A DNA stretch of 53,279 nt from Vermamoeba vermiformis. Taxonomy: Eukaryota. Shown in pieces: positions 7,214 through 49,570 of the stretch. The translations under genes and the position numbers were made by a program. The stretch is taken from NCBI GenBank assembly GCA_045837725.1, contig JBEWZL010000011.1, positions 744,001-797,279 on the forward strand, given 5' to 3'. Positions within the stretch are counted from its first letter, which is position 1. Each line of letters opens with the position of its first letter. Below the pieces are notes generated by a model. It had not been told where the DNA came from. It did no database searches and saw nothing but the letters and a program-made list of their open reading frames with translations.

Positions 7214-10200
7214 ATGTTCTACGTTATCATTGCTAGATATATTAGCATCGCTAGATATAGCTTGTTGATAGCATTGATATCTCTGCTGTTTATCTTTCCT
7301 TCAATCTTGACCGCGTAAGTAAATTTACAAAATGCATCCGGTTCTAAAATCGCTCGTAGTAGTTGTACAGCTGATTGGGCTTGCGGTGCCAACGAATACT
7401 GCAGTTATCAATCGTGCTTGACCGCAAAGGGTGCTTCAGTTAGCTCTTTCTATCCGTTTGGCTCGAATAACGGTACGGTGGATCTTCGATAACGTCTTTC
7501 ATTTCTAATCATTTCTTAGGCGACAAGTCGTTAATTGGAGACGACGCCAAAGCAGTTGTTTCCAGGAATCTCAGTTTTCCATTCGCGGGCACGACGTACA
7601 GCTACATGTTTATCAGCAGCAATGGTCTGATCTCTCTCGGCAATGACAAGTCAGCACCGTTCAGCCAATTGGATCCGCGTGCATTTCCTATTGAAAATGT
7701 CACCTTCATTGCTCCTTTGTGGCTTGATTATGGTACGTTGCTCATATCTATTGTTGCTATTCTGTTGCTGATTGATTGCTTGTAGACAACCGTCAGACTC
7801 TGCCCAACGGCGCTAATTCCATTTACTACCGCGTGGTTTCCGATGAAGACACGCTGTTCAACATCAGTGACGATGTGAAAGAGAATTTTGATTTGTCGGG
7901 GCTCGATTTCTCCGCTACCAGTGCAGTCATTGCCACTTGGTTTAAAGTCGCTAAATATAAGCGTTTCAGCGACAACTTGAACACTTTCCAAATTGTGCTT
8001 GCTACTGATGGTCAGCAGAGCTTTGCCATCTTATTCTACAATCGTATGTAGTCTACCAGTCAATGATGTCATGTTACTAACAGCTCTATGAAGACATCGG
8101 TACCACTCAAGTTCACGGTCTATATGCTCGTGCAGGCTTCAATGCAAATTCGGCCGGTGTCACAAGCATGGCTTATGAACTGCCCAGCAGCGGCACATCA
8201 CTCGTGGGCTCTACTCTCGAGCAAGATTCAAATGTCAATGTCGCAGGCAAGTGGATGTTTGAAATCTCGAGCACCACTGTGAACGTGCCTACGTCAACAC
8301 CAATCTCCGAGCCTGTAGCCGCTCCTGTATCGACTCCTGTCTCAACGCCTACTTCACCACCGGTCAAAGCACCAGTAGCAACCCCTGTATCTGTTCCTGT
8401 TTCCGCCCCTGTGTCACCTCCCATTAAGGCACCTGTTGCCACGCCCGTTGCGGCGCCTGTTTCTCCGCCAGTGAAAGCACCTGTTGCCACGCCCGTGTCA
8501 GTCCCTGTTGCCACACCAGTTTCTGTGCCAGTTTCAGCCCCTGTGTCTGTCACGACCTCACGTCGTAGTGTTGGCAATGCGATCACAACTTCGGCGCCGT
8601 TCTACTCGTTTCTCATGAATCACCCACTCACTCCACCTGCGAGTTTGCTCGGCCCAATCCCGATGCCGTATCCGACTAATTCATGGCACACGAACATGTG
8701 GCTCAATCAAGGCAACATGCCTATTGTCACCAGCCCGTATATTGTTGAAGTGCGTAACACTGGTGTTCAAGTCAGTTATTCCGCTCGCAGTTTCACTGCT
8801 ACCAATGGCAATACAGTCTTCACCGAAAACTTTGCTATGTTAGTGAAAGAAACAATTGCCCAGCGACGGGTTTTGGACTGGGACTTACTGTCAGTCACAC
8901 TGATTTGGTCGAACAATCAGCCCACTACTTACGATCCGAACACCATCAACTACGGCACTCGTGCTAACTCTATGATTGCACCGTTGGTTCAAGGCAGTCC
9001 ATACATCACTACTAAATGGGACGGACTTACTCCTGTTATAACTACCGTGCACGCCATTCTTTCAATCAACGGTGCGACCAGCTCTACGGTCACTGGCACC
9101 AAGTTTAAGATTGCACTCAACAATGGCCAGACTTGGATTCTCTACGCTAGTAATTCAATCACTTTCACTTGGTCTGGATCAACGCTCACGGCCACGAGCA
9201 CTTACACTGGAGTTCTACGCGGTGTCTGTTTGACGGACTCTTCATTCGAAACTACATTAGACCAGTACAAGAACAGCGTGCCCATTGCATCTAAGGTCGG
9301 CTGGACCGCGACAGGTGATACTGCTGTCCTTCAATTCGACTACATTACTGAAGATGGCTCTGCACCATTGATGATGACACTTCCTCATCACCGCGACATG
9401 ATGACTGGCGTTACATACGTGATGACAAACGCCTATGTCACGATGAAGGGCAAGATGTCTGGACTTGTAGGCCTGAGCTGGAAAATGACCGAGCAACTTA
9501 CCACAATAACATGGGGTGCCCCGAGAAGCATTCCAACGCAGTACGTTGAGTCCATTCGCACGGCGCTTCAAGCAGACCAGTCGATGACCCAAACAGCTAG
9601 TGACACATACACCAGCGGCAAGAACTTGGCTGCTGTTGCACGCTTGGCGCTTATTGCCGATGAAATTGGCGAGACAACGATTGCATCAAACATTCGCAAT
9701 CGTTTGAAGACTTTGCTGCAGAATTGGTTTAATGGGCAAACGTCAGACAAAATCATTTACGATCGCACGTGGGGTGGTGTCACTTCATCGAATGGCATTA
9801 AAGACAGTGGTGCCGATTATGGACTTGGTTACTACAACGACGTTCACTTCCACTTTGGCTACTTTGTGTACGCCTCAGCAGTAGTGGCCAAGGGTGACAG
9901 TGCTTGGGCGACAACATGGGCACCTGCCATCAACGATCTTGTGCGTGCCTATGCCAATCCAGTGCATGATAGTTACTTCCCAGTCACGCGCATGAAGGAC
10001 TGGTACGCCGGTCACTCGTGGGCCTCAGGTCTATTCGAGTTTGGTGACGTGAAGAATCAAGAGTCTTCGTCAGAATCTATCAACGGCTACTATGGCATGT
10101 ACCTCTGGGGTCTCGTGTCCAACAACGCCAACTTGCGCGATCTTGGTCGCTTGATGCTCGCACAAGAAATCCGCTCTACTAAAAAGTACTGGCACATGGA

Positions 10201-10576
10201 CAACAAATCTAATGACGTCTACGATCAAGTATTTGCTGACAACGGTTGTGTTGGTATTGTTTGGGGCACGAAGGTTGACTTTGCTACTTGGTTCGGAGCC
10301 AACATCGAGTACATCATTGGCATTCAAATGATGCCCTTCACGCCCATCACGGAAGAGTATATGAACAGCGCTTGGGTTAGCACGGTTTATCCAACATTAT
10401 CCACTGCTCTCACACGTGCTAGTCCAACGATTCAAGTAGGCTGGCGTGGCTTCATCTACATGGCCCAAGCTGTGTTGGATAAGGCGACTGCATGGACCAA
10501 CATCAATACACTCAATGGCTGGGACAACGGAAATAGCAAAACAAACGCGTTGTATTGGATAGCAACGCGCGCATAA
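7214..10576 (+). CDS. Secreted NIDO-domain + Pro/Val/Ser/Thr linker + GH81 endo-1,3-beta-glucanase
   Basis: Signal-peptide exon at 7214. NIDO motifs: FYPFG..GD, FPFAG..Y..MFISSNGLIS, FIAPLW, IATW, NTFQIVLATDG..SFAIL, SNVNVAGKWMF. PVxxPV linker. GH81 motifs: YPTNSW, YYNDVHFHFGY, KDWYAGHSWASG, NQESSSES, GIQMMP, DNGNSKT. Confidence 0.92.
8309..8551 (+). repeat. 12-bp-period coding repeat (P-V-x-x)n forming a mucin-like linker
   Basis: About 20 tetrapeptides (PVAA, PVST, PVKA, PVSV and similar) between the NIDO and GH81 domains. Confidence 0.85.
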
Positions 10577-17843: not shown

Positions 17844-20724
17844 TCAATTCTCATTAGTGGCTATCTTTGATCGCAGCAGAATGCAAACATCTTCCATTGT
17901 CTACGACAGAGAAATTAATTTAACAGTAAAAATATTCACTCTAGACTTACCGGTCGTTCATTCGGATTGGCCTTCAGACATAGATTGATTACTTCGACAA
18001 GCACTGGATCCGCGTTTTCAGGAATATCTGGAGTGACCGCATAATCTCGAATGCGAGCAGCAATTGTGAGTTGATCTTCGTTTGTATGTGGCTCTTGTCG
18101 TGAAATGATCTCGTTCACTTTTTTGAAGTGTGTTAGTAAGTTACACTTGAAATGATTTTAGCGAACATTACCAGTAATACCGAATGTCCAAACGTCCGAT
18201 TTAATACTGTATGATCGATCTTTTAGACTCTCTGGTGCCTATCGAAAAGCATGTGCTTGTTAACAATGTGCTATAAAAATTAATGTATCATCGTACCATC
18301 CATCTGATTGGTCCAAAGTTTGTTTTAGTTTGACCTTTTGAGTTCTCTTCTTGCAACAATCTAGACATTCCAAAGTCACTGATCTTCGGTTGTCGATCAT
18401 TCGTCAACTAAAGTCACTTGTTAGCAAATAGGTATCGTAAGTGTCAAAACTCACTAGAATGTTTCTTGCGGCAAGATCACGATGCACAATGTTGTTATTG
18501 TGAAGATGGAGAAGACCGTATGCGATCTTAATCGCAAACTCGCGTTGTTTCTCAACTGGCACTGGCTGGTCAATATCAAATAAGAGTTGATCTAAGCTAC
18601 CACCGCCACAATACTCGAGAACAATGCATGGATTGGGTCCATCAAGACTCACTCCGAAAGTTTGAACAAGGTTCGGATGTGGTGCAATGCCGCTAGAGTA
18701 AAAGATTGTTAGAATCAATGGCCATATGTCTAATCGTTGCTTTTGTACAGAGTTAGTTTTGCTTCGGCCAAGAATCCATCGACATCAGTAATCTGATTAT
18801 TCACTTTGATTGCCACCTTTGCTCCACGCCATTCACTATGAGTGTTAGTAAGCATATTCCGGACCAAATTAATTGTCAAACTCACCCTGAATACACTTTG
18901 CCAAAACTACCAGCGCCAATCTCTTTTACGAACATGAGACTCTTGTATGGGATGTGAAGTCGCTTGTCAATGTCTGGAAGGTGATCCACCACTGATGCCG
19001 CTTTGAAGCTGTCGTCGTTACTATCGACAGTCGACAACCCCATCGACGTGTACACCTTATTGGCATTTGAGACAGGAAGGTTGTTGTGATGCACTTCCGA
19101 TGAATTGGTCGTGTTCATGACGTTTGTGTTTGCTTGAGAAGCTGAGGGGTCGTCAAGATCAGTGACAGGGTTCATTTGGGTCTGTGCAGCATTCGTTTCC
19201 TTCTTGTTGTTCTTTGTTCGTTTGTGCAAGAAGAACACGAGCAAGAAGATAGCCACCCCAGCAACTGCCACAGGAATCGAGACACCTACTCCAACTGCAA
19301 CTGCATTTACAGGAGAAATTGATGGTGCATCGCCAAGGTTAGTATTGTTCGTGGTAGGTGAAGTGGTTGGTTGAATAGACTCTGGAGAGGTAACTGGAGA
19401 GTAGGTTGGGGTAACAACAGGAGGACTAAGTGGTTCAACTGCCGTACAAGCAGATGAATTGCGACTCCAGTTTAAAATGTCCAGATAAACACCCGTCGAA
19501 TTCGACACCAAAACTGATATCATATCGACTGTTGCGGATTGGTGTAAGCCATTAATCGACATTGCAGAGCCATGATAAGTATCTACTAGACTTCTAGTTA
19601 CTACGTCATAAATTGCTACTGTATAGCGCGAGTCTTCGCTAGTCAACACCGATAGGTGATTGCAGTCAATGTATGATATTGCGACGGAGTATATGGTAGG
19701 TTGAGTTCCAAGGCTTACAAACTGCGTTGTATCATTGCTGAACACGCAATTCAGCACGGAATTCTGATATAAAATATGAGTGATCGAAAAGCATTCAAAG
19801 ATAATCTACTTACTCCTATATAACAGACCACCCATTTATCGGGGGAGTGTACTGCTATTGAGATCGATGAAGCTTTTGATCCTGAAGTCTCGAAAATAGT
19901 ATTATATTGCCCCGAACTAGTAAGATTTCCAATGGAAATAGTAGCATTAGGCGTCGCAGCCGCGAATATAAGAGTGTCCGCTATTAAATCAAAATATTAG
20001 TTATTTTTTACTGAGTAGTAAGAGTAAATACATCGAACAATGTTAATTCAAATAAGTATCTTATGGTACTAAATTTAAGTTCCCTACCTGTCAGTCGTCT
20101 GCTTTCAACCTCGAAACTAAACTGTTTCTCCAGAGGTGCTATATATCCGGTCTGATTAATCACGAGAGCTAAAGGGCCTGCAGCCAAACTAGATACGCTA
20201 ATATAGGCAGCATTTGAAACCGGTATCGATTTCAAGATTGGTCCTGAGATTTCATACCAGGTACTCTACGAGCATTTAGTTACTAAATAATTAAGTATTA
20301 TCATTGCTTACATTCAGGCTAACAATATTACATTCGGTAGTACCGTCAACAACATCCACATCAGAAAATACCGGTTCAATCGATGGAGCATTGGGTAAAT
20401 TTGAAGGATTGATTATTCCTTCACTAAAAATGAATAAGCCTGACAGAATCTTGCCATAGGAATCAATCCCGGCAGCACAGTTAGACAAATTTTGAGCAGG
20501 TCCATAGCTTTCGATTCGTAGCTTGCGTGCTACTATTGCACTCCCAGATACTTGATACGATGCGACTAATTCTAGAAATATACAATAGGATTAACTATTA
20601 GAATTGTTTTACAAAAAAAAAAAAGAAAAAAATATGTTGCGGTCGAATTGTCATTCTTACGTAATTGGCAATTTGTTACTGCAAATAACGACAGGAATAT
20701 TGCGACCAAATAAAGTGAATTCAT
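17844..20724 (-). CDS. Single-pass receptor tyrosine-kinase-like (TKL/TK) protein
   Basis: Signal peptide MNSLYLVAIFLSLFAVTNC at 20724, ectodomain, S/T/P stalk and TM (AVAVGVGVSIPVAVAGVAIFLLVFFL). Kinase motifs: IGAGSFGKVY, VAIK, HRDLAARN, ISDFGMSR, GPIRWMAPE, KSDVWTFG. Confidence 0.92.
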
Positions 20725-22789
20725 TTGGCTACCCTTCGGCTGATTCTGAAATTCGATCTGTGAAACGTGACCAGTCTTGTAAGTAATTGACGATCATGTA
20801 CGTGAAAGAACCTACGTGTTTGTTTATTCTTAACTAACGTACAAATATTTCAGGACCGGATAATTGAATAAAACTTAGTTAATGGGTGACATGACAAGAT
20901 ACTTCATTCCCTTCAAGTGTGCAACATCGTTTTTGAGTCTCAAAGAAAACCTGTAATAAGTCGTGGTTAATATATATAACGATAAAATATCTCGCGTAGA
21001 ATCTCGACCACGTCGCGATTACACCTAATAAGCACGTTTTGAATGACAATTGACATCTGTTTAATGTGTAACAAAAAAAACAACCATGTTACTATTGTTG
21101 TTTGCAGCGTATACGCTAGTTTATTTATTGCTACTCCAAGAAGTGTTTTTTTCCGGTATCAGGTCAATTTTTCCAGCAGTTGTGTATGTATGACGAGTTA
21201 GACACTTACGAATATCTTTTAGTTGTGCACGGTTTTGATTTTCATCCTCACCTCCTTCACGGATTGAAAAAAATTCGTACCTAGGCTTATTATCTTCGTT
21301 GAAGCAGCGGTTAATAACGCGCTAGATCCCGTCACCGAATTTGCTAATTTTTTCTCCAGACCCTTGTACTAATAAATAAACAATGTCAGAACGTAATAAA
21401 TATAATTTTATAACGACTTGACTTCGTACTTTTGCGATCGATGCGCGCATTAATTGCCGAAATTGGGGATCAACGGGCCCGCGGGGATCTGCGATAAACT
21501 CAATTACGCAGTAACTCTACCGATGTCAACGAGTTAATACGGCTATACAAAATTGACTTACTATAAACCGCACTTTGTTCGTACCAATAAATTAGCGCAG
21601 TCAGATCGCGCCTCTTGTCCATTCCTGCTCGCTAATTGTTCTGTATTAGATACCACGTTAGTACGTTCTAAGTATTACATAGAATTAAATATACTTACCT
21701 TTAGAATTACGCATCTGTACTTTTATTCGCGATCCAAGATCGCTCTAAGTCTTAGATTAACGCGTCAGGCCAGCTAACCAATAAAAAGAGATTATTATAA
21801 TTATTAAATATGATATCTAAGGTAATTTACTTACTACTCCGCCAAGTAAAATTTAACGTACTTCTCGATCGTGTTACTCGGGCTCAAGGGTTCGGAAATA
21901 AGCTATCAAAATACGATTAGCATAATATTTAAATTATTAAATGAATGGCTAGTTAAATTTTATTCGAGCACGAAGCTCGATCTAAATAAAGAAATTGTTT
22001 TTAACGTTAACACGGATACAAAATTTAAAATTTACAATTTCTTATTATTATAGTACCAATTTATAATATCAAAATAACTTACCTTTCAATTTGATGACCG
22101 TAACGCTGAGATGTCACGATCCAACGATCTGGTCACGCGCTGCAACCCCGGTGAATATCATGGGGACATAACGTTGAAAATAAATGAATAATTCATCAAT
22201 ATTTGACCAGTTGTGGTCCCGAGATCTCGTGAAATCTTAAATAATGACGGCGCTGATCTTGATTTGCCGGTCAATCCGGCTCTTAATTGATTGTCACCTA
22301 TAATAATAAAAAATAAGTTATATAAGTCACTAATACGGCATTAACTTACAGCTCGCACCGCTGCAGCGGACAAGATCGTGTCAACGATTGATCGCACTAA
22401 TAACTGTAATAATAGCTCTAAAAATGACATAACTGAGTTATAACAGAAGTAAATAACGGGTTTTACTTACTTTTAGAGCAACGATGCTCTATATTGAAAC
22501 TTTGACGGTTCGAGATGTTGGATCTGATCCGGTTAACTTCGTCAAAGGGTCGCGTTGAACCCTCTCGATCTGTATTTATATTAATACAATCTAAATAAAA
22601 ATTGAAGTGTTATAATATTGTATTTAGTATCGTCTAATCGTTATTAATTAAAAATATGGATAAAGTACGAGCACTAAGCTCGATCCGGATCTTAAAAATT
22701 AATTTTTACTTGAAAATTTAAATATTGAATTTACGATAGATTAATATTATAAATGGAAGTATATAGAAAAATCTTACCTTGATTTATCT

Positions 22790-23375
22790 CGGTCTCTGTG
22801 CCGAGATTTGATCGCGTTTTGTTCGCGATCTTAAACCCGCACTGGAACGACGCTGAAAGTCGTTTGGCGCGTGTTGACAATCAATATTATCTCCCATAAT
22901 AGCGATAAATCGACCCTTGTGGTCGATCTGATGCGAATCTAAGTTCGCATCGGTTTCTCATCCAAATAACTCGCGCTGAACGGCCGTTGCGACCGTGGCG
23001 CGTAACTATCATTTGTTAATACTCTATAATAAATAATTATAACGACCCTTGTGGTCGATCTGTTGAGTTGATGAGGGAAATAACGCGCGTTATCATTTCA
23101 GCAGTGAATTCGAAATAACTCGCGCTGGAGCGGCTTTGATGCCGTGGCGCGTTACTATATGCTGTAAATGATCAATTAAATCGCTTCAAATAAATAACTC
23201 GACCCGTGTGGTCGATCTGTCTAAGTTCTCTTTTTAAAAACCGCTTTCGGATGACGCGTGCGATTTTGACAACTCGAAATAACCCGCGCTGTAACGACTT
23301 TGGTGTCGTGGCGCGTAACTGTCCTATCTAATAATCGATAAATAAAGACTTAATTGATCGTTTTGGTCGATCTCC
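22790..23375. repeat. Tandem array of structured ~130-160 bp units (hairpin A CGACC-YKTGT-GGTCG-ATCT; hairpin B AAATAAC-CGCGCTG..stem..TGGCGCG-TWACT)
   Basis: Units start at 22911, 23043 and 23200, with partial units at 22838 and 23356. Stems vary in sequence but keep pairing. Dispersed relatives at ~22135-22220, 35387, 36392 and 37837-37923. Confidence 0.75.
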
Positions 23376-23832
23376 TCGTTAAAACTAAACTTACCTGCTC
23401 GTTCCGTTGACGTTCTTGTTAAAATCAAACCTGTGGTGCTAAATTAAATTAGTACTGTTAATTACCAATAGAACGCGAGTAACGAGAATCTCGTTAATCT
23501 CGCGGATTTAATAATTGCTCAGCGTTCGAATCTGACCTCGAACGTAATCGAATAATAATTTTCCTTAAAAACCATAATTAACACGTACCTAATATTACCT
23601 CCAGCTGGTTGATTTTCTATAATTCTTCTAAGATCCGTCATTCTGATCTGACGGATCTACGCGACGTTTTCTATGATACAATGCGTTATTGAATTTTTCT
23701 AGTATTTTTCCTCGTACGTACCTGGCACTGTCTTTCATAATAAACAAAATTTACTTGATACCCAGTCCTTGGTCGCGATCTCGGCTCTTGGGCGTCCACT
23801 CGTGCCCCCAAGGGATCCGCGCTATTTCTCCG

Positions 23833-24040
23833 TTACTTCGCGATAGCCCATAAAATGCTGCATCCAGTACAGCGGCATCCGTCAGTGCAACCCTTTGCTC
23901 CTTTTATACAACGACAGCGCATCGTGTTGCAACCACAGGATATTGACGAAGGATCTTTAGGACTGTCATTTTCGCCGTAAGTGAAATCTGCTTGCACCTC
24001 CTTATTTCGTTCCTTCTTTTGCTGCCGTAGTTTCTGATCC
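23833..24040 (-). pseudogene. Tesmin/TSO1-type CXC Cys-rich domain fragment
   Basis: SCGCNTMRCRCIKGAKGCTDGCRCTGC matches the CXC Cys spacing and follows a ttttctgcag acceptor. No upstream coding exons found. Confidence 0.55.
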
Positions 24041-25208
24041 TGCAGAAAATAATTCGTTCTTGCCTCGCGCAACGTACAAGGCAAGGAAAAAATAATCGGA
24101 AATTGGACGCCAGTATTATGCATAATTGTGCCTTAAGAGCGATATATGGCGATTATTAATGTTAGGTTTTGGCAATACGCGAGCTTGGCGGCTGATCGAG
24201 GGGAAGATCGGAACGACGATAGTATTGAAGGCTTTGTACGAATTATTTAAGCATAAAAATGACAAATATTGATAAATTGTGCATTATTTTATCGCGTAGA
24301 GCGGCTTATTTGGCGAAACAAGGTTTGTCTTGGTCAACCTCGCGAGATTTGGGATCACAGAAACAACGAATTGGTAAAGTTGATTAGAGTTTGGGGTAAT
24401 TTGACTAATATTTGTTATTCAAATAAAGATATTTTACGTTTGATATTTTAATTTCTAACCGCGAAAATGGTGGGAAATGGTTGTTATCGTAGATCGAGCT
24501 TTGGAAATAACAGAAAAAAATAATTATGCGCTCTATCAAGACCTCTTACATTATAAATTCATACTAAAGCAGTTAAAATGGTTTTAAAATTCAAGTTAAA
24601 TAATAGAGCACGGGGACATTTAGTACCTTGACACGGCGCTTCTATATCAGTCCAGGCCATATTCAAGCTCGTTATTGATATATTCATAGTAGATATTATT
24701 GGGTGATTTGGACGCCAGTGTTGACTTCATTCTTCTGCGTTTGTTTTAAAAATGATTTGTACAGGAATTGATCGAAGAACACACGACAAGTGTGCGTTTC
24801 CAATTTCGGTCTGGCTGCTCTTCCACGACGAACCAGAAAAATTCATTGCACGAACACCAACGCTTGGGAGGCTACTAATTGAGTCCTAAGCCATTTAGCA
24901 TAGTTTAATTTTTCGTGTTCAGCGATCAGACCATTTGTGGAACTTCGCAAGTACTGGTCGTGTTTTTTAATTATAGCGGATATTAAGCCATCACAGTTCT
25001 TGCCGGTTATTACTGCGTAAGTTTCAACTCGAAGCCAAAACCAATTTTTTTAATATTAAATAAAAGGATGATTAGCTTGATAATGTTAAAATGCCATTAA
25101 TAATATTATTTTTGCCGTAATTTTCTTTGATTAATTTTATTATCAATAAAGTAGATGCGCCGTCGCTGGTCCATTAGAACAATCAGAAGCCCACCAAAGC
25201 CGTTTCCG

Positions 25209-34191: not shown

Positions 34192-36638
34192 AATTCAGAG
34201 CAAATTAAATGATAGATGGGTTGTGCTCTGTTTGTCTGGGTAAATTAAACTGACAAATAACGAGAAAAACTGGCTCCAATCGGGCATGTTCCGGTAATTA
34301 ACACACTGTTACAAAGTTAACTCGCAACTGGACATAGTTGTGAAACGATTTCAGCAATCGCTTTGATTATAGTAATTATAAAATATTTCCGTATTTGTTG
34401 GTGCGCTATTTTAGTTGCGGATCAGTAATTCTGAAAATAGAACTTGTCTCCGAATTTAAATTAATTAACCTATGAATAAAGATTAATTAGGACACCGGAT
34501 TCTGGGTTTTAAAGTAAATAATTAAATGTAGTTGCCCAAATAGTGCACTATTGACGTCAAAAATAGCAACACGATCGCGAATAAATAAATGAAGTTTTTG
34601 CCACGAAAATAGAATCAACCAAAGTTAGAAAAATTCAATGGGAAAGATACGATTTTAATAAGTATTTCTGATATTATACGAATGCCAAAATAGGCAACGT
34701 AAGCTGGGACTGCGACGCAGACGGACGGTATTTCCAGGGAGAGCGGCCGGTATACGACATAATTGACTCACAATGGCCATGCATATGCATGCGACACTTG
34801 ATTCAGGTGAGCAAGGCTAGCATAACACATTTTGCTGCTATTACAGGTGTGGATGTCAATCGAAATTGATGTGTTGCGGATTGATGCAATTCGGGTGATG
34901 ACAGACGTGAGGAGCATCAGCTCTATGACGAGGTTCAGTTGGGAAAAAGATAAATTCCCCAGTTTTCTTATCTGTGTCGTAAATCGTTTGATTGTGATAA
35001 ACGATCTAGTATACAAATGTATAAAAACGTATAAAACGTGACAAACGTAAAAAACAGATTCAGTCAAAGTGCTAAAAGCTAACTTACTTTTTCGACGTTC
35101 GTGTTGAATCAGAGGGCCGGATCTTGAGGGTGCGAGATCTCAATGAGCTGTTCTGAGTAGATCTAACGTTGAACGGGCCTTCATATGTAAATTGAAACTT
35201 TTCGGAAGTCCTTTCTCTGGCACGGCAATTTTCTTATATAAGTTGGAAGTTACATAAAAGTACTTACACGCCAAGGAAAAGTGCGATGCCGATCTCGCGC
35301 AAACTACCAACGCCGAATATAACGGCGTCATCGAGCATTAATGTGGAGGCGTTGTGATAACGCCTAAAAAATATAATGTCAAAATAAGACCTTGTGTGGT
35401 CTCGATCTTGAACTTACGCAAGGGGGGGCAGCATCGCCAACTAGCACCAACCTTGCCCTAACCGTAACTATGTTATTAATTATAAAATTGACCATTTTTT
35501 CGGTACTTACGGGAATCCCTGTGTCTGCGCAGATCCGGGATCTTGACCATCGCGCCGGGCAAAACATTTAAGTCTCCTATCAAATCCAACATTATATGTC
35601 AATAAAGTTTTCCGATTACTATCATTGTTTAAACTTACCGTCTTATCAAACGTATTGGTGGCCAACATGGCTCGCGCGGAGATCGGGTTGAGCGCGATCT
35701 CAAAATCTCAATTGGTTGACGTGTAACCTATTAACAATTTATTAGAAATTATATCGTTAATATTTTAAACAAAATTGATTATACTTACGTTGTTATTTGA
35801 GCCATTAATTCGGATTGACGGCCGTCGATCTGCCGGGAGAAATGACCTCCAAAACTGAAATACGATATTATTATATATGTTATTAATATCATAATTGAAA
35901 ACGATTTCAATTTGGCGCGATCTACAAGAAAGATCCGCGCATTGAAATTTCAACTTTATTACAAAATATTACTATTTGAAATTATATATTGTCCGCATTA
36001 TATTGCAAGTAGTTAATAAATATAAAAAACTTACCGAATTTATCTGAATCCTTTGACGGATTCGATCGCGCCATCTTCGTCACTGGCCTCAGTGTCCACT
36101 CCAAAATGTACCTCGAAAGTGATCCTTCGAGTGATAGCACGCCGCTGCAGCTAGCACCACCTTTGCTTGCTTGTTGAAGCTCATCTATTTGGAATAACAG
36201 TGTAGCTGACGGATCCAACGTTGCGAAATCAAGTGTTGTTTTCTTAAAGCTTTGGGTTTTGACTTTAAATTGCCAATTGTAATTCAGTGGTCGTGGTCTA
36301 CGGCAATTTGAACCGATATTACAAAATAGCGCCGATATCCATAATGACGAGACAGTCCGCCCACGAGAGGAACAACAATACAATTGTAAACGACCAGTGG
36401 TGGTCCAGATCTGGCGAATCGAACGGAACTGGATCGATCCAGTTCAATCGCGTTTTAAAATTTTAGCGGGAAATCTATAATTGAATAAAAACGTTAGTAT
36501 ACTAATTATAAACGTGTGAAATAAGGGTCTGATTGACCCTACGAGGTTAATTTTCGCGGTCTAAGCTCGATCAGCGGATCTTTAAATTTTGCAATCAAAA
36601 TTGAATAACCGTTGTAAAAATATTTAAACGGGGGAAGT

Positions 36639-37758
36639 TGTAAGGAAAATAGTGTGTATATTTATTGTAGGAAGGTCACCAAATAATGACGACTTGTAAC
36701 GTCACTAAATATTGACAATCATGTGACGAATGTCACCTATTTTCATTACATTTCCCTCTCCCCAGAGTAAACCAAGGCTTGAACATAGCTCCACCAGGAT
36801 CGAAGGGCTGCAGTGGTAAGTAATTTCTATCGTAATTCAACTTCACATGAAATTTCCATATCTCCGTCTCTCGTTCGTCTCTTGCTCCTCTACAATTAAT
36901 AGGATTGTTTCCATCATCTATTTCTCTCTCCGCTCTTCGCTTCAAAGCGTTGGGCCAATTTTTGCTCGGATCTGATCTCTCCGCGCTCTTTTGAATTTTA
37001 TTTAAAAAAACACCGCCCTTGAAGGCCCGGGCCTGTTTCACCTGTGTTGGGGCTGTCTCTGACTTCAATTCCTGCGGTTCGGTCGTACTCCTAATCTCTC
37101 GATGAGGTGTAATCTCAGATTCGGTGCACAAAATCTCCGTCACATCTGCTGACGTGTCATTACTAGTGACTAATGGCTCTCTAATAAACATATCTTCGCT
37201 CATAATATTATTTTCTTTGCATCTCTCTTCTTCGCCGTTCACTTTCTCCGCGTTCTGTAGTGCATCCGCAACTCGACTGGACTTGACTTCTTCTAACGTA
37301 CTTGACTCGCGTTCTCTCTTCTCTAACGGGGCTTCTACCCTACTAAACTCTTTTTCTAAAGCACTCGCAACGATAAGCATGAACTTCTCCGACGATAAAA
37401 AAGTGATGACGTCACTCGCGCAATCCAATCGCTCCAGAATCTTCTCGAATCTCCTTCTCAACTTGCCTTGCTTCTTGGAACGCGGATGGAGAAGTCAAGG
37501 TTGGTTTTGCCGTCGCTAGAGGAAGTACGAGCGAGATAAGGAGATTTCTAGTAAAGTTCGAGTGCGAAAGAAGTTACATACCACTGCAGCCCTTCGATCC
37601 TGGTGGAGCTATGTTCAAGCCTTGGTTTACTCTGGGGAGAGGGAAATGTAATGAAAATAGGTGACACTTGTCACGTGATTGTCAGTATTTAGTTACGTTA
37701 CAAGTCGTCATTATTTGGTGACCTTCCTACAATAAATATACACGCTATTTTCCTTACA
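36639..37758. mobile_element. 1120-bp element with long terminal inverted repeats (TGT...ACA) and a 4-bp TSD AAGT; each arm is a polypurine tract plus a 112-bp LTR-like unit
   Basis: 36639-~36830 is the reverse complement of ~37567-37758. AAGT lies at 36635-38 and 37759-62. GGGGAGAGGGAAA directly precedes TGTAATGAAAATAG...AATAAA...CTATTTTCCTTACA (37647-37758; mirror copy 36639-36750). Confidence 0.88.
36733..37461 (-). CDS. Internal ORF of the inverted-repeat element (acidic/coiled-coil, ends FDPGG...), function unknown
   Basis: 242-aa ORF that runs through the PPT into the LTR-like unit. No integrase or RT motifs. Confidence 0.35.
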   Translation of the reverse strand: MRRRFEKILERLDCASDVITFLSSEKFMLIVASALEKEFSRVEAPLEKRERESSTLEEVKSSRVADALQNAEKVNGEEERCKENNIMSEDMFIREPLVTSNDTSADVTEILCTESEITPHREIRSTTEPQELKSETAPTQVKQARAFKGGVFLNKIQKSAERSDPSKNWPNALKRRAEREIDDGNNPINCRGARDERETEIWKFHVKLNYDRNYLPLQPFDPGGAMFKPWFTLGRGKCNENR

Positions 37759-38553
37759 AAGTATATTATATTTTACGTTACCTTCAATAATTAATTAAAA
37801 TTATGACGCCGAGATTGGCTCGGGTCAAGATAGTCTCGTGCTGCAACGACGCTGATTGTCGTTGGGCACGTGTCCAACAATACATTTAAACAATAATAAA
37901 TAAAAATATCACCCTTGTGGTCGTTCATTCGGCGATCTAAAAATTAAGTTTGAATTTTTTGAATTGCTTTCCGCCAATACAAACGCGGGATTATTGCCAT
38001 AGCGGACTTACCTCGGCATGGAATATTTCGACCCTATACTCGTTAGATAGCCCTAGCCCTCCATTGAATTCACAAGGTTTGGCTCGAGTCGTATTTAAAT
38101 TATGCAAAATCTCCACCACATCTTTCAACAACTTACCATGGATTTATCTCGGCCGTAAGCCACCAGCGGCAAATCCCTCACGAGAAGAGAGGCGATATTT
38201 TGTATTATTAATTATTTTTTTGGTAGCAACTGGTGACAACAACATATCAAAAGCCAACGTCTTCCTGCGGTTTTAGAGATATTGAAATAATTTATTAGCA
38301 TTCTCGTTTAAGGCTTCCACTTCTTCGGTTCATCAGATCCGAAACGCAGTTCAATCTGACCCAAAACGGTAAATTTTGTTAATAATAATTCTTAATAATT
38401 ATTTATGATTTATAAAGCGTATAATTTGACTCTTTTTATGCTTGGGGCCAACGTTGCGCTAATTTTTCAGTTATTTTTATGGTAGTTTGTTATTTTGGAT
38501 CCGAATATTCCGAAAATTAATGTGACGTTTCCCTGACTCATATTTCGAAATAG

Positions 38554-40881: not shown

Positions 40882-41478
40882 TGTGGCAATAATGCCAGTA
40901 AATACTATCCTAATACACATTGATAACGAAAGCCTGAATTGTTCTCGTAGGCAAGAAAATGCTCGGATCCGGCTCTGTTGCGAAAGCAGTGCTGTTCGTA
41001 TAATCGTCGGAGTCAACTTTAGTTTTGTTTTGACGAGACAACGGAGATGGTGTCAGCGTCGCACTGGAGGTAGTCGACCCAAGTGAAGGACAACGAGGAA
41101 GATGCAATTGAGTTAGAACTGACGTTAATAGCGTTCTCTGTTTTCTTAGAGTCGTCGCTGTTCTCAGAATTTAAGCTGGTGACTAAAGCACAGCGATCAA
41201 ATTGGACTTACGGTGAGGGATACGTTTTCAACAGGCCTGTTGATGCGGATAACAAGGCCAAAGATCTTATCAGCACGGTTTTGCAAGTGTCGATCTTGGA
41301 GTCGTTCGAAGAAGGAGTAGTATCAATGAGGTTTGGAATGAATAAACAGAGAAAAAACGTCACCAAACATGGTTTATCCGCCGATACTTAATATTTCTGT
41401 ATTAATGTTTTGTCGCCTTACTTAGACTTGCTGTAATTTTGCGATTCCGCATGCAATGGCATAAATGTGCATGCGATT

Positions 41479-41691
41479 GCCGAACCTGCGCGCAATTTGC
41501 CAAAACTGCGCGCAATTTGCCGAACCTGCGCGCAATTGCCGAACCTGCGCGCAATTGCAGAACCTGCGCGCAATTGCCGAACCTGCGCGCAATTGCCAAA
41601 ACTGCGTGCAATTTGCCGAACCTGCGCGCAATTTGCCGAAAGTGCACGCAATTGCCGATACTGCACGCAATTGCCGAACCTGCACGAAATT
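41479..41691 (+). repeat. Left subterminal tandem array, 11 x GCCGAACCTGCGCGCAATT(T)
   Basis: Directly visible 19-20 bp units, each containing the palindrome TGCGCGCA, with no spacers. Confidence 0.95.
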
Positions 41692-41853
41692 GAAAGTGAG
41701 CATCGTTTATTTGTTAGGCATAATATAGTATAATGTATTAAGCGGAAGTCATTCTCCGCTGGTGAAAAAATAAAAAAATTTTCTGACAGAGTTTTTTGAC
41801 AGTGCAAAGTCGAAATTTTTTTTTAAAAATCGTTTATTACACTTTAACTACAC

Positions 41854-42795
41854 TTAATATTCAATAGATTCATCACAGGACCCCTCAAAATCATTCTCTT
41901 CCTCATCTTCATCGTCCAAGTAGTTGTTATTTGGGGCAGGAGATCGCATCTCCGATCCAACAAACGGCTGTGTTGGGTAAATATCGCCGGATAATCTCTT
42001 TATTAAAAAATTGGTTGATTCTAACACACCAATTGATTTTTCTAGCAATGTTATAAACAATCGCTCTTTTGTCTCCTGGCGTTTAGCAAATTGTCGTGCT
42101 TTTTCGGTTCGCTGAGATTTCACACTTTGCCGCTCTCGTTCGGCATCGTCAATGTCGTCATTTACCTCAGCAAGTGTTCGCTTTTTCCCACGACCTTTCA
42201 TTGCCTTCAATTCGTCATTAGCAATTTTGTCAAGAAGATCTTGAATTTTTTTGTGTTCTGACTTGCGCCGTTCTTCCGCTGCATCGTGCTCTCGTTGAAG
42301 CAACTTCTTTTGGTCAGAAGTTAATTTCCGATCTGTTTTAGGGTCTTTGGCAGGAGCCTTGAAGTTTTTCTTTTTGAAGGGCTGACGAAAGGCAGATTTG
42401 GCAGCGTTCAGCGAATTAAATTGGATCCGCAGTTTGTCTGACTCGGTGACGCTTGATATGAGGTGCTCATCGTGCATCTTCTTCAAAATTGACCCCCAAT
42501 TCTTGCCATGTTGATCTACAAGTTCAACTAGGCGACAGCGACTGGCCCAGTTCCAAGATGTGTCAGATCCATCCTGATCTCCTTCACCGACATCCTCTTC
42601 ACAGCTCATATATGGTTCTTCATTATCTGATGGTTCACCTTCTGTGACGACAAACTGATTTGTGTTTGACATGGCTAGATCGTTAGAAAATGAACCTGGA
42701 TGTGGCTGCGAAACAACGACATGCCAAAATTTTGCCCTGGTAATTGCGAAATAATACTCCAGTAAATATCTACGAAGCATTTTTACTATAGCCAT
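41854..42795 (-). CDS. Myb/SANT-like DNA-binding accessory protein of the inner Harbinger
   Basis: WNWASRCRLVELVDQHGKNWGSILKKM..KLRIQFNSL, followed by a coiled coil. The true start may be a downstream Met. Confidence 0.8.
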   Translation of the reverse strand: MAIVKMLRRYLLEYYFAITRAKFWHVVVSQPHPGSFSNDLAMSNTNQFVVTEGEPSDNEEPYMSCEEDVGEGDQDGSDTSWNWASRCRLVELVDQHGKNWGSILKKMHDEHLISSVTESDKLRIQFNSLNAAKSAFRQPFKKKNFKAPAKDPKTDRKLTSDQKKLLQREHDAAEERRKSEHKKIQDLLDKIANDELKAMKGRGKKRTLAEVNDDIDDAERERQSVKSQRTEKARQFAKRQETKERLFITLLEKSIGVLESTNFLIKRLSGDIYPTQPFVGSEMRSPAPNNNYLDDEDEEENDFEGSCDESIEY

Positions 42796-42825
42796 TATTT
42801 CTATTGACCTTTTACTCCCGACCAG

Positions 42826-43824
42826 ATGGGAACCGAATTGAATCTGACGCTCAATCTGCTCATTTCCGTTCGAACTGTTATTATTGTTTTAATTCAAAGC
42901 ATTTTGATGCATCTTCAACAATCAAAATGGCTTCACATAGAAGATTACCTCAAGATCACGCGACATCTGCTCCGTCCTCGCCAAAACGGGCCCGGAAAGC
43001 GAAGAGTTATTCCTCCACGAATGCCTAGGCACAAACCTGTGGGGTCTGTTGACATTTATGACAGAACAGGCATTGAACGATCATCATTTATGCAGATTTT
43101 TGGTCTTGTTCGAAGCGATCTGGAAAAACCACGATCTGGATCCCGCAAGATTAGAGTCACACTGTCATCTGCCCATTGCCTGCTAATGGTGCTTCAGTGG
43201 CTGCGAGAATACCCAAAATTTAAAGTGATGGCTCAATTGTATGGAGTGTCTCGCTACTTTGTCAAGCGCGAGATTCGACACCAGATTCCAATTTTATTCG
43301 TCAAATTAAATTGGATTGGTTGGCCAGGAGAGTACGAAATTAGCCCTGTAGGAGCCCATGCTGCAATCGATTGCTCTGCGCACCAGCGATTGCGAGTTCA
43401 CCCTAAATCCGCTGACTTTTATCGCGGAGACAAAAGAATTAATATGATGGTTAGCCAGTTTGTTGTTGAATTCAACGGAGCTTTGTACGAACTTGCTGTG
43501 GGTAAAGGACATAATAACGACCAAGCAATGTTCAATATTACGGGTATGAAACTTCACACAGAACTCAATCAGCTAACTCTTCTTGCGGATCGTGGTTATA
43601 TGCACCACCGAATCATCACTCCCGCCTCCGTTGACTGGTCTCAGTGTTCCTCAAGCCATCGAGTCATTGTTGAGAATGTTATTGGTCAAGTGAAGAGATT
43701 CGCTGCTGCATCCGCTACGTTTCGGCAATCACCCGAGTTGCAAGTGCTGGTTATCATTGTATGTGGTGAAATTGTTGCAGAAAAGAATCAAGGCAATGCG
43801 CAGCGATTTTTCCAGCTTGAATAA
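42826..43824 (+). CDS. Harbinger/IS5-like DDE transposase (DDE_Tnp_4, HARBI1-like), uninterrupted
   Basis: HTH LLMVLQWLREYP..MAQLYGVS, then catalytic AIDCS, FYRGDK, GHNND, LADRGY, RVIVENVIG.VK.F. Confidence 0.92.
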   Translation: MGTELNLTLNLLISVRTVIIVLIQSILMHLQQSKWLHIEDYLKITRHLLRPRQNGPGKRRVIPPRMPRHKPVGSVDIYDRTGIERSSFMQIFGLVRSDLEKPRSGSRKIRVTLSSAHCLLMVLQWLREYPKFKVMAQLYGVSRYFVKREIRHQIPILFVKLNWIGWPGEYEISPVGAHAAIDCSAHQRLRVHPKSADFYRGDKRINMMVSQFVVEFNGALYELAVGKGHNNDQAMFNITGMKLHTELNQLTLLADRGYMHHRIITPASVDWSQCSSSHRVIVENVIGQVKRFAAASATFRQSPELQVLVIIVCGEIVAEKNQGNAQRFFQLE

Positions 43825-43962
43825 ATGTCAATTAAGAAAATTATTGTGACTTTGCACCGTCCCGTCAAAAAACTTTGTCAGAAAAATTTTTTATTTTTCC
43901 ACCAGCGGAGAATGACTTCCGCTTATTAGCTCACTTAATGAATATCAAAGTCTGAGTAGTTA

Positions 43963-44961: not shown

Positions 44962-45912
44962 ATGGATGAGGTAAAGACCTTGCAATAAATTTTAAAAATA
45001 ATTTGATAATTATTTAATTCATAGACTAGAGCTAATGAGTGCTGGTTTGATATTATTAAATCAAGCTTACGAGTAAAAACAATGTCGTATCAAATATTTT
45101 TATCGCTCATTGGAGTGAAGCCCATTATCTTGTCGATTTTATGGACAAAGTATAGCCTGAAGTCAACGTTAAAGCCTGAACACCTCCTAATGGCGCTGAA
45201 TTTTCTCCGTGAATATTCGACAATTGACTGCTTGAGCACACTGTGGGGAGTTACAGCCAAGACTTTCTCTGGCATTGTTTGGCGAACTTTACACATCCTT
45301 GCAAATTCTCTGGAGGAGATTAACTTCGATGATCGGCTGGAAAATTCTGCGCACTTTTCATGGGGCCAGTATGTTGGTGCAGTTGATGCAACCGAATGCC
45401 GCGTACAGCGGCCAAAAAAGTGGCGAATTCGGCGCTTATTGTACAGTGGAAAGAAGAAGTACTTTTCATTGAAGTACGAAAGTAAGAGATTAATTAATTT
45501 TCTTATTATAAGCGTTATAACGATTTTTTAGTTGCTGTCCACCTTGCTACTGGGAAGCTATTCTGGACAAGTGGCTGGGTACCAGGCAAAGTACATGACA
45601 TCACTTTGCTCCGATGCAATGGTTTGCTTAAAAAGCTTGGGGAAAATGAGAAGCTGATTGGTGACAAAGGCTACATTGGTGAAAAGAAGCAAATTACTAC
45701 TCCATTTAAAGGAGAGTTAACAGATGATCAAGAAGAATATAATGACACTCTTGGATCAATACTGCGTCATTGTGGAGAATGTCTACTCACAGATTAAATC
45801 CTTCCGCTGTCTTTCCAATCCATGGCGACATCATTTAACACTTCACAAAATAGCATGGACTGTTGTAGTGAATGTTGTAAATGCCAACATTAAATACTTC
45901 CCGTTAAGATAA
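44962..45912 (+). pseudogene. Harbinger DDE transposase of the outer element, 2 introns, one +1 frameshift
   Basis: MDE|TRANEC.., LLMALNFLREY, AVDATE, LYSGKKK, GKVHD, IGDKGY. The frame breaks at ATA-CTGC-GTC (~45761) before VIVENVYSQIK. Confidence 0.85.
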
Positions 45913-45933
45913 CCCTTTATTCCATAAACTTTG

Positions 45934-46124
45934 GGCAACTGCACGCAATTGCCAAACCTGCACGCAATTTGCCGAACCTGCGTGCAATTGCCGAACCTGC
46001 GCGCAATTGCCGAACCTGCGTGCAATTGCCGAACCTGCGCGCAATTGCCGAAACTGCACGCAATTTGCCGAACCTGCGCGCAATTGCCAAAACTGCGCGC
46101 AATTTGCCGAAACTGCGCGCAATT
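45934..46124 (+). repeat. Right subterminal tandem array, ~10 x GCCGAACCTGCGCGCAATT(T), same orientation as the left array
   Basis: Nine full units plus one partial unit, directly visible. Confidence 0.95.
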
Positions 46125-46781: not shown

Positions 46782-49320
46782 TTAAGTGGCTTTACACGTC
46801 GCAAAGCATTTGTTCTGCATCCAATCAGATCCTAAGGGACATACGAACAGGTTGTTACTCGCTGAACAAACAGCCAGATTTTCAGGCAAAACAGTGACCT
46901 CATCATCCCACTTCCGAAATCGATTGTTTGAAATATCAAGGTAGACCATTTGGTTGAATGCAACCGGTAAAAGATGGAAATCTCCGTTGAGCTGATTATT
47001 GGACAAATCGAGATGAACTAATGAGTCAGATCTGGTCGCGGGAAATGAGTCGCCTGTCAGCATATTGTTCGCCAAATTGAGGTACTTTAGACCGAATCCA
47101 AAGTACGGCAGTGTTCCATTGAAGCGATTCGAACTCAGATCCAGCGTGTCAATCATTCGACAGTCGGGAATTGTTCCGTCGATCTGATTGTTTGCCAAGT
47201 TCACTTCCGCAATCCATTCGCTACTGAGAAAATCTTCTGGAAGTGTGCCGTAGAACTGGTTTCTGCTCAGATCGATCACGCGCAGTTCAGGATATTTTAC
47301 TATATTTGGAAGTGATCCTGTGAGACTGTTATCCGCAAGCTTTAGCTCTGTCAATCTGTCAAGCTGTCCAAATTCTTCAGGTATGGTGCCAGTCAATGAG
47401 TTGTTCCGCAGTACAAGACTACTAAGCCACGTGATTTTGTTCAGTGACGATGGCAATGTGCCAGTCAAGTTGTTATTGTCCAGCCAAATGTGAATGTTGG
47501 TCCACAACTCGCGTGGCATAGTGCCGTTCGGAAGCTCATCGAAATAATGCCACGTGTTCTCGCATTTAACGCCGTACCACTCGCAGATCGATATTCTTTC
47601 GTTGAGCCAATTGTCTTTTCTCAGCCACGTGTTACCATTCGTTGCAACATAAAAATCTTTCATAGCCGTGACGAACTCTGGCGGTATTTTAAAATCGTCT
47701 TGCTCGGTGCTGTGGAGCGGAATAACTCCAGCGAATGCCAGTGCCATGAAGACGGTGGCTAGAATCGTTACACAGCTGACCGCAAGGAGCACGATCTTTT
47801 TCGTTCGTGATCCGCGTTGATAATTATCAGTGGTGCGTGACGGCGTTGAGTGTTGCTTAGTAGTGTTGTCTTTTTGTAGAAATTGCTCGTACATCTCGTC
47901 AATAGTTCGCTGAATTCGTTCTGTCTTTGATCGAAGGTCGTTGATGTCACCATAGTTGGCACGAACTGACTCGCTAAGATATGGTATCAGAGACTCATAG
48001 TCAACGTGAAGAATACCTAGATGCCGTCTATGTTAGATAGATACTAAAGGGAATCACAATTGATTTAATAGAACTCACCGTCAATGAGTTGAACAGCTTC
48101 AGGAACAACACTCTCCACTTGTTGTGCAATGTAGCCAACAAATCGTCTGTTCGTGTCTGGATGCACTCCTTGCTTGAACTTGTAGTCAACACCGTCGATT
48201 TGAAGTAGAGTATTGCGGCAGTCGTGGTCTGAAGTACCATAAATGACACGTGTCAGTCCAATGTTACACGCGATCCTACGGGCGCAGAGAAGCTTCCAGA
48301 GATAATTATAACTACGTACCTTCAACGAGTAGCCTGATGTCCTCTTTGATATTGATGTCTGATGACTTGTAGAAGTTCAATGCTCTGAAGTTACCAACGA
48401 CTTCTGCATTGCCGTTGTAAAGTACCATGTACTGCTCGCCGTTGTTGTTGCTCGCTAGATACTGTAGCTCTGTATCGTTGTTGTTGTTCTTGGGCAAATA
48501 TTGCACCTCGATAGCACTACAGGAGTTAATCGCATAAAAACGGATGTGAAAACTTACTTCGGCTGATCGAAGGGATACATCTGATTGGTCTCCGAATAAC
48601 CTTGCCCCGAGTCTTCGTTAGAACAGCTCGCTTGGTTGTAGTGTTCTTCGTCAACATAATAAGTCTCGTGCTCGTGCGGTGGACTTTCTTCAACATAAGC
48701 CGAAAGATTGGGCGAAACTTGGCTTAGAGGTGATGTCGGAACGAAATCTGGTACCCAAAACACGGGGATAAAAGCTTAACAATAAACCGGTGAGTAAATC
48801 CACGAGAAAATACATGTTTTCGTATTTTTTGGCGTACGCTCGCCGGCAAAATTCTTAACTTGATCCAAATGCTTACCCGTCGAGTCGTTGCTCCCTTGGC
48901 GATTTTTTGGTAATATTTGGACGATGTTGCTGAATGCTTGTTTGATGATCTGACCATTTTTGATTTCATTCACTTGAATTCGTATTTCTCGGGCTTTGTA
49001 TCTTCGAAAATCGAACAATTTGGCTGGAAGCTTAATTCTTACGACAATTCCTCAATTTCTTGCGTCTCCTCCGAGCGTTGAAATCTTATTGGTTTTCTCT
49101 TCGCCCAAACGAAGCAGTTTGGCAATGAAACTTCTTCGTCAGTTTGAGGTTGTTTATAAACGAGTGTTATATGGTACTGCAGGCTGCTTTCATCATTATT
49201 TTTCTCGGCCAAACCAAATCCAAAATTCGTCCCCAATAAAGGAACAGATTCGAGATTCGCGGGACCACTTAGAGGAATGTACAAATCAAAAATGTTCCGA
49301 ATGCGAGCGGTGTGTGCCAT
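46782..49320 (-). CDS. MYRF-like copy A: putative DNA-binding N-domain, peptidase S74/ICA autocleavage domain, coiled coil, TM, LRR ectodomain (1-nt frameshift at ~49050)
   Basis: MAHTARIRNIFDL.. at 49320. ICA motifs YNGNAEVVGNF..YKSSDINIKEDI, GYIAQQVESVVPEAV and VDYESLIPYL. TM KKIVLLAVSCVTILATVFMALAFAGVI. LRR N-cap W..CEWYGVKC, then plant-type LxxLxLxxNxLtGtIP repeats. GAGG here versus GAGGG in the paralogue. Confidence 0.85.
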
Positions 49321-49570
49321 TTGTTGATTACATAGTAAAAAAGTGACGGGTGCCAGTTGATTCCCACAGGACACTTTCGGGCAAATAGCCAGTCCTATCA
49401 GATTTTTCAATCATTTTACTTAAAAAAAGGCGTGGAATTATTTTTAAGTACTTTGGCGAACCCGATCATCAATCTATTCAGTTATTTCGTCGGTTAAGTG
49501 TCTTGATCTAGCTGAAATTTAAATCAGCAAGCTAAGACCCAGACTAATAGCTCCACTATTTAATTATGAT

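Follow-up and report, generated by a model that had tools for sequence, protein, structure and literature searches.

The hairpin units repeated in tandem in the window (the whole 53,279-nt stretch analysed here, which is the last 53 kb of contig C11) form one block of a longer conserved sequence that occurs in many copies at the chromosome ends of this genome (assembly of 43.3 Mb in 309 contigs). An earlier note on the window had proposed a self-standing structured RNA read from the plus strand; the units are instead modules within a 5' leader that has many introns and is read from the minus strand of a subtelomeric element encoding a recombinase-like protein. Our best reading, which we hold to be plausible but tentative, is a telomere-targeted tyrosine recombinase (YR) DNA element of chromosome ends with a structured leader that would attenuate splicing.

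The hairpin array and its copies in the genome

The array of the window comprises three full units and flanking modules, and lies within a relic of the element. The features of this region are the following:

21200..23850, minus strand: inverted and truncated relic that retains only the 5' leader of the telomere-anchored element (supported by 84 genomic BLAST matches and by how far it resembles other copies)
21516..22348, minus strand: non-coding exons across five GT-AG introns, joints 21516/21585, 21640/21699, 21773/21835, 21902/22083 and 22295/22348 (contigs of runs X1 and X5)
21965-21979, minus strand: second conserved intronic hairpin, in the spliced 180-nt intron (sequence and RNA-run contigs)
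22668..22682, minus strand: conserved hairpin in a predicted intron (sequence)
22773..22872, minus strand: S module, with a B-like hairpin (22836), a variable middle hairpin, an ATCTCGG/CCGAGAT hairpin and then a canonical donor (35-copy alignment)
22911..23007, minus strand: unit 1, hairpin A at 22911, AAATAAC and bulged hairpin B at 22972 (covariance-model match of 122.6 bits, by construction)
23043..23156, minus strand: unit 2, hairpin A at 23043, AAATAAC and bulged hairpin B at 23121 (covariance-model match of 59.5 bits)
23200..23320, minus strand: unit 3, hairpin A at 23200, AAATAAC and bulged hairpin B at 23285 (covariance-model match)
23355..23375, minus strand: degenerate fourth hairpin A, which opens the array (sequence)
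23474..23657, minus strand: upstream conserved hairpin blocks of the leader, U at 23474-23492 and H at 23632-23657 (comparison with other copies)

This relic has neither a telomeric-repeat end nor a recombinase gene, and its end differs from the complete termini. On the transcript (minus) strand, each unit runs from an AT-rich spacer and an acceptor-like AG through hairpin B, GTTATTT and a middle stem to hairpin A.

The tandem A/B units described in the earlier note are real: the three were located in the window, and exact matches in the genome number 44 for the hairpin-B pattern and 101 for that of hairpin A, versus none for the reversed controls. A scan without match bias collected 119 distinct B hairpins, 190 A hairpins and 98 complete units from 45 sources, arranged in arrays of 1-4 units with a spacing of 154 ± 10 nt. 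Among the arrays on contigs of at least 100 kb with a size on record, 26 of 27 are found no more than 35 kb from a contig end (22% expected) and 25 point outward, the copy in the window being one of the two exceptions. Telomeric repeats adjoin element-like sequence at contig ends of C8 (where the terminal telomere is 2.5 kb away from the array), C16, C231 and C252; other contig ends can be assembly breaks. The copies are mosaic, truncated and, in places, inverted.

A variant module with a CGTGC/GCACG outer stem, reported in the earlier note at 37837, was found there and belongs to a second relic:

35040..38140, minus strand: second relic, more strongly diverged and interrupted by an unrelated element with inverted repeats (similar to other copies by BLAST only at about 36300-36500 and 37800-38000)
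36638..37759, unstranded: insertion in the second relic, with 227-nt terminal inverted repeats that are 92% complementary

The wider extent given for this relic was inferred from periodic donors and GATC density. The insertion carries a 242-aa frame without Pfam match.

Folding and splicing of the leader

The units fold: compared with dinucleotide shuffles, the 98 distinct units have a mean folding z of -3.06 on the minus and -2.37 on the plus strand, in line with the proposal that they are non-coding and folded, and the minus strand is the more stable one in 63 of them. The earlier note had taken the plus strand for that of the RNA, but both pairing and splicing favour the minus strand. Stem cells read on the minus strand hold 117 G-U versus 36 A-C pairs (73:12 in the inner stem of B, 30:17 in A, and 14:7 in the outer stem of B); as 72 of the 117 G-U cells derive from three recurrent substitutions, the independent events are far fewer. 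The variable middle stem folds alike on both strands (z of -1.62 and -1.61). Compensatory covariation, which had been put forward as an argument for selection on folding, is present but weaker than claimed: two-sided changes occur in 5 of 25 pairs among 35 units, a count reached by 35 of 500 shuffles, while the covariation score is reached by 10 of 500; in the S module they affect 1 of 13 pairs (35 copies). These counts concern paralogs of a single genome, and the alignments of units and S modules, like the covariance model R1, were built from an extraction biased to near-consensus copies. Folding is real and selection for it likely, with moderate support, since the G-U bias speaks for it but independent two-sided changes are few. 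Further downstream, 19 leader exons of the C231 copy, rich in GATC, show no excess of structure over 19 coding controls (z of -0.27 versus -0.49), so that structure is concentrated in the 5' part of the leader that includes the units.

Splicing on the minus strand is seen next to the array, where contigs of X1 and X5 (probable RNA runs, a status guessed by the tool) skip, among the joints listed, five CT..AC intervals between 21516 and 22348, i.e., GT-AG introns of that strand. Depth in these contigs is zero at 20340-21041 and 23850-25000. The spacers between the units are retained in two X1 contigs for which neither strand nor RNA origin is recorded (22966-23087 and 23103-23329), the latter containing unit 3 with its unspliced spacer to unit 2. 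Two raw-read runs, X8 and X10, match the organism poorly (none of their reads reaches 99% identity, and a single one falls at 95-99%) and are uninformative on the locus.

The spacers had been likened to minus-strand introns, and this holds, but the accompanying statement that the intervening sequence is not conserved does not: they carry a branch-like motif and a conserved acceptor-like AG, which precedes hairpin B in 106 of 119 cases with variable neighbours. They read GT..AG (median 41 nt, n=95), start with GTCG in 83 cases, and begin at the 3' arm of hairpin A, which in unit 1 contains a degenerate donor GT on the transcript strand. A canonical donor follows hairpin A in only 2 of 190 instances. 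A similar ATCGA..AAAG|GTAAGT closes other leader exons, and donors along the leader are 144-146 nt apart, versus 154 ± 10 nt for the units. In the S module the donor AAG|GTAA is invariant across the 35-copy alignment, for which it served as an anchor. These sequence features suggest that each unit arose by duplication of an intron-exon module and that hairpin A now hides its donor GT. Retention of the spacer is what a donor mutated into a stem predicts, and it matches the X1 contigs.

Near the start of the leader, a conserved 15-nt GTAA..ATAG is found at 23813-23827 and in block Z of other copies. It is far shorter than the element's introns of 50-60 nt and could be either a very small intron or a donor paired with a decoy AG.

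Ends of the element and the recombinase-like gene

The element's inner terminus lies upstream on the transcript strand; there, a fixed sequence meets about 2-3 TTAGGG repeats. We collected 13 such ends with 12 different flanks (C43 and C126 share theirs), one with variant repeats and one with only 1.5 repeats. Neither a fixed outer end, nor an empty site, nor a circle junction was found among the genome copies, and the two outer ends seen (C16 and C231) differ. The same CCCTAA+AA junction occurs where natural telomeres begin and in several unrelated telomere-side repeats, so plain healing and recombination would give it too. Natural telomere junctions carry the same A-run as the terminus, so the latter was not taken for poly(A).

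Three copies link the leader to a recombinase-like gene. In C231, preserved as a whole, the leader runs without visible junction into a multi-intron ORF, while in C162 and C285 the path from the telomeric end to the first coding exon measures 5.7 and 6.4 kb and passes the units and 31-32 donors; at that exon the contig of C162 stops, and the C285 copy is frameshifted and truncated. The same ATG opens M-A-L-N in all three. According to a heuristic gene model, the leader has about 30 small exons with a period of about 145 nt (median exons of 86-89 nt, introns of 58-59 nt) and contains 27-52 upstream ATGs. No reverse transcriptase (RT) frame was detected in the leaders of C231, C162 and C285, the longest frames in the latter two being about 90 aa. 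The motif scan for hammerheads gave two matches, both outside the element, and Rfam gave none.

The ORF behind the leader appears, from its sequence, to be tyrosine-recombinase-like. Relatives are encoded at seven loci, and 11 homologs were found among the cluster representatives, of which P0124 (849 aa) is apparently full length. They share the motifs GGQRRE, EK, PxxxRR and HAxLINTS..Y, which we take to be signs of a YR; the catalytic candidates R, K, RR and Y are conserved by eye, whereas the first His is not. In the Atlas, 20 of 30 named-cluster matches fall into the Phage_integrase set at 0.96, a family found on 15% of the set members. XerH, Cre and topoisomerase IB stand at or near the top of the Foldseek list at non-significant values (best E of 0.68, for a model with a pLDDT of 52); the predicted structures are poor (pLDDT of 35 for the single-sequence model, and 52), and VIA-align returned no clear fold (best Z of 5.5, unrelated). 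Searches of Pfam, PHROG and PDB sequences gave no match for this protein, including none in Pfam for GCR1_C (up to E of 1) or DUF3504. No homolog was found for one YR exon among longer proteins, no P0124-related locus was confirmed in metagenome contigs, and no pairwise similarity was detected with a DIRS-type YR of the same genome.

Four paralogous YR loci have the opposite polarity and no hairpin leader: downstream of the gene they end in CCCTAACCCT, followed by unique flanks. They are L107, L109, L110 and L113 (on C117, C183, C123 and C190). Three of them have an inverted TTAGGGT about 22 nt inside the end, and upstream of the four genes lies a divergent ORF of unknown nature on the other strand. 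At L106 (C16, 1-360), a YR gene lies directly beneath the terminal telomere, and a near-palindrome of the telomeric repeat stands just in front of that telomere. Over its last 300 nt the gene is 88% identical to C231, the proteins being only 36-56% identical.

A second, unrelated repeat family also begins at TTAGGG repeats and continues toward the telomere with GATC-rich hairpin exons and GT-AG introns; its sites are:

L115:7500-8100 (C276)
L116:7900-8100 (C127)
L079:7420-8493 (C231)

Further CCCTAA-ended repeat families occur on C46/C217, C177 and C257. The sequence AAACCCTAACCCTAAAAATTTT is present at five sites (L118, L126, L127, L130 and L141), several of them internal and intergenic-looking, and resembles a telo-box promoter motif.

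Origin of the element and competing explanations

Under our best reading, the mode of movement of which is inferred from sequence, the element would spread as DNA, most likely by YR recombination at telomeric repeats, and would therefore keep its introns. Terminal erosion, capping by telomerase and recombination would then leave mostly truncated copies. The units would have arisen as tandem duplicates of a leader intron-exon module in which GTCG replaced the donor GTAAGT and now forms the 3' arm of hairpin A, so that the spacer would be retained or poorly spliced. As a hypothesis for their role, an RNA with a variable number of hairpin units might dampen or delay expression of the recombinase. 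We regard as unlikely the wider proposal of a new group of compact telomere-targeting YR DNA transposons, in which a single gene stands behind about 30 non-coding exons at roughly nucleosome-length spacing and the units of a tandem hairpin array bury a splice donor, the array either holding back recombinase expression to a tunable degree that depends on copy number or serving the recombinase as an RNA partner. If the best reading is true, it adds a route of chromosome-end colonisation in a telomerase-bearing protist and offers a testable case of a splice donor turned into an RNA stem and then amplified.

Yeast Y' elements carry a helicase gene, a protein that differs from the present YR-like one, and we know of no multi-exon structured leader in them. 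They share with our element the state of a subtelomeric repeat amplified by recombination, as described in the cited parts of PMC11042809 and PMC6071591. Cryptons, according to the sections of PMC3212892 used here, are eukaryotic DNA elements with a YR gene, no RT, and direct repeats of 5-6 bp or none, CryptonF elements also having a GCR1_C domain. The present element would be alike as a eukaryotic DNA element with a YR-like gene and no RT frame detected in its leaders, but it differs in its telomeric-repeat end, its subtelomeric copies and its leader of about 30 introns, and from CryptonF by the lack of a Pfam match to GCR1_C. Endogenous nimaviruses possess telomere-specific YRs and insert into telomeric repeats (as described in part of PMC10871703); compared by description, they likewise tie a YR to telomeric repeats, but they have large viral genomes, whereas no viral genes were seen in the about 10 kb covered here. 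Terminons and the Athena/Coprina EN-minus Penelope-like elements, as portrayed in the cited portions of PMC6431247, PMC8557442 and PMC3846280, share with it a fixed end with short reverse-complement telomeric repeats (found here at 13 ends), polarity toward the chromosome end, truncated telomere-capped outer ends and retained introns; the present element differs in having neither hammerhead nor RT of its own, and a YR-like gene instead. MoTeR1 and MoTeR2 of Magnaporthe form telomere-embedded polarised arrays with short interstitial telomeres and inverted internal relics that resemble the copy in the window, but they are retrotransposons, and the cited parts of 10.1101/845669 describe neither a spliced hairpin leader nor a YR. 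The element appears to work like a telomere-targeted mobile element and is at most a candidate member of the Cryptons, terminons or MoTeRs. YR elements and telomere-attached elements are each known in eukaryotes; our search, which covered the open-access literature, returned neither a YR element that combines a telomeric end with a multi-exon non-coding leader nor one of roughly 10 kb that is anchored on telomeric repeats and has a 6-kb non-coding leader with 30 introns.

Possible but doubtful is a passive subtelomeric duplication block of the yeast Y' type, in which break-induced replication (BIR) primed at short telomeric seeds spreads a YR-like gene and its long spliced leader between chromosome ends, and in which the hairpins have little function and arise in part as by-products when templates switch and segments duplicate in tandem. 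It would account for the mosaic, truncated and inverted copies, for the junction type shared with natural telomeres and other repeat families, and for the few two-sided changes and a middle stem that folds alike on both strands, and the cited parts of 10.1101/845669 report BIR-driven array growth and inverted internal relics for MoTeRs. Since that junction is shared and neither outer end nor circle was found, it fits nearly as well as the best reading; the G-U bias toward the spliced strand speaks against it, as do a terminus placed exactly at 12 flanks and the telomeric termini of four other YR loci. If it is true, the element is an unusual subtelomeric repeat of modest interest. A terminon-like retroelement (EN-minus Penelope-like) would instead produce a plus-strand RNA ending in CCCUAA repeats, which anneals to G-rich overhangs and is copied by an RT in trans, with the YR gene as cargo and with introns that survive because they are antisense. 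The reverse-complement telomeric repeats at the fixed end, the variable telomere-capped outer ends and the head-to-tail stacking match what the cited portions of PMC6431247 and PMC8557442 describe, and part of PMC3846280 proposes intron retention through an antisense template; yet the element has no hammerhead motif, its folding favours the other strand, and none of the 17 of 55 RVT_1 matches of the genome that were inspected looked Penelope-like, one being unclassified. We hold this explanation to be improbable. The inspected matches were assigned to telomerase RT, Gypsy, DIRS-like and non-LTR elements, the match on C146 being classed by frame length alone; a telomerase reverse transcriptase-like gene was recognised by motif reading at L064 (C282:347000-356999).

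We consider very improbable that the array yields independent small structured RNAs or ssDNA motifs (snoRNA-like RNAs or a ribozyme), as stable folding, 1-4 units per array and conserved hairpins within introns might suggest. Rfam provided no family for the units (no match at the gathering threshold in the window or in five loci, and two chance-level matches with E of 3.9 and 4.9), the covariance-model scan found units solely inside the element (4 matches in 21 sources), and the exact unit pattern had no match in the viral and metagenome contigs scanned. ARAGORN predicted no tRNA, and hammerhead, H/ACA, SECIS and tRNA-like identities were dropped after sequence inspection and the blank Rfam results. 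The least probable reading is a decayed or cryptic coding repeat, with spacers and middle segments as non-canonical introns and the 48 nt left per unit encoding a 16-residue repeat before the YR. With both segments removed, this micro-exon frame has a stop in 1 of 77 units (38 and 6 for the two alternative frames), the length classes from A to B are skewed (47/31/20) and exon lengths are conserved; however, the synonymous share is 0.30, third positions are no more variable than the others, 24 of 119 B hairpins are of another length (17 of them one base shorter), and spacers are seen retained. Six other paralog exon blocks likewise show no codon periodicity, with synonymous shares of 0.13-0.43. 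One frame in each of two of them has fewer stops than shuffles (E, 9 of 19 versus 17 expected; V, 9 of 18 versus 16), but these frames do not chain through all exons; the longest stop-free stretch is 59 codons in the six window exons joined by the splicing at 21516..22348, and at most 98-132 codons in the modelled spliced leaders. The view that no ORF accounts for the units is thereby borne out, also for a spliced protein-coding frame, which was looked for and not accepted. Judged from these alignments, present-day coding is rejected, and an ancestral coding origin is conceivable. A recoded genetic code was dropped as well, given neighbour genes with long open frames in the standard code and stops of all three kinds.

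The remainder of the window encodes a GH81 protein, Bmp plus 7tm_3, LRR proteins and a kinase, a gene content that suggests an intron-rich and perhaps amoebozoan-like protist. The segment 18635-26569 is 98% identical to C110, a match that may extend further and reflects a haplotype copy or a recent duplication. A receptor-kinase-like gene lies at about 18000-20715 on the minus strand, as the relic does, and its signal-peptide-like start comes about 500 nt downstream of the relic; the two are joined by no contig. An ORF with a DDE_Tnp_4 domain and a divergent second ORF are enclosed by 65-nt inverted repeats at 41736-43928, an element that we take to be Harbinger-like and that is flanked by arrays of a 19-nt repeat (41439-41711 and 45911-46124). 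The GH81 glucanase gene (8168-10576) is intronless and has a Pro/Ala-rich linker, and the LRR genes at 46782-51987 are tandemly duplicated with a period of about 2.7 kb.
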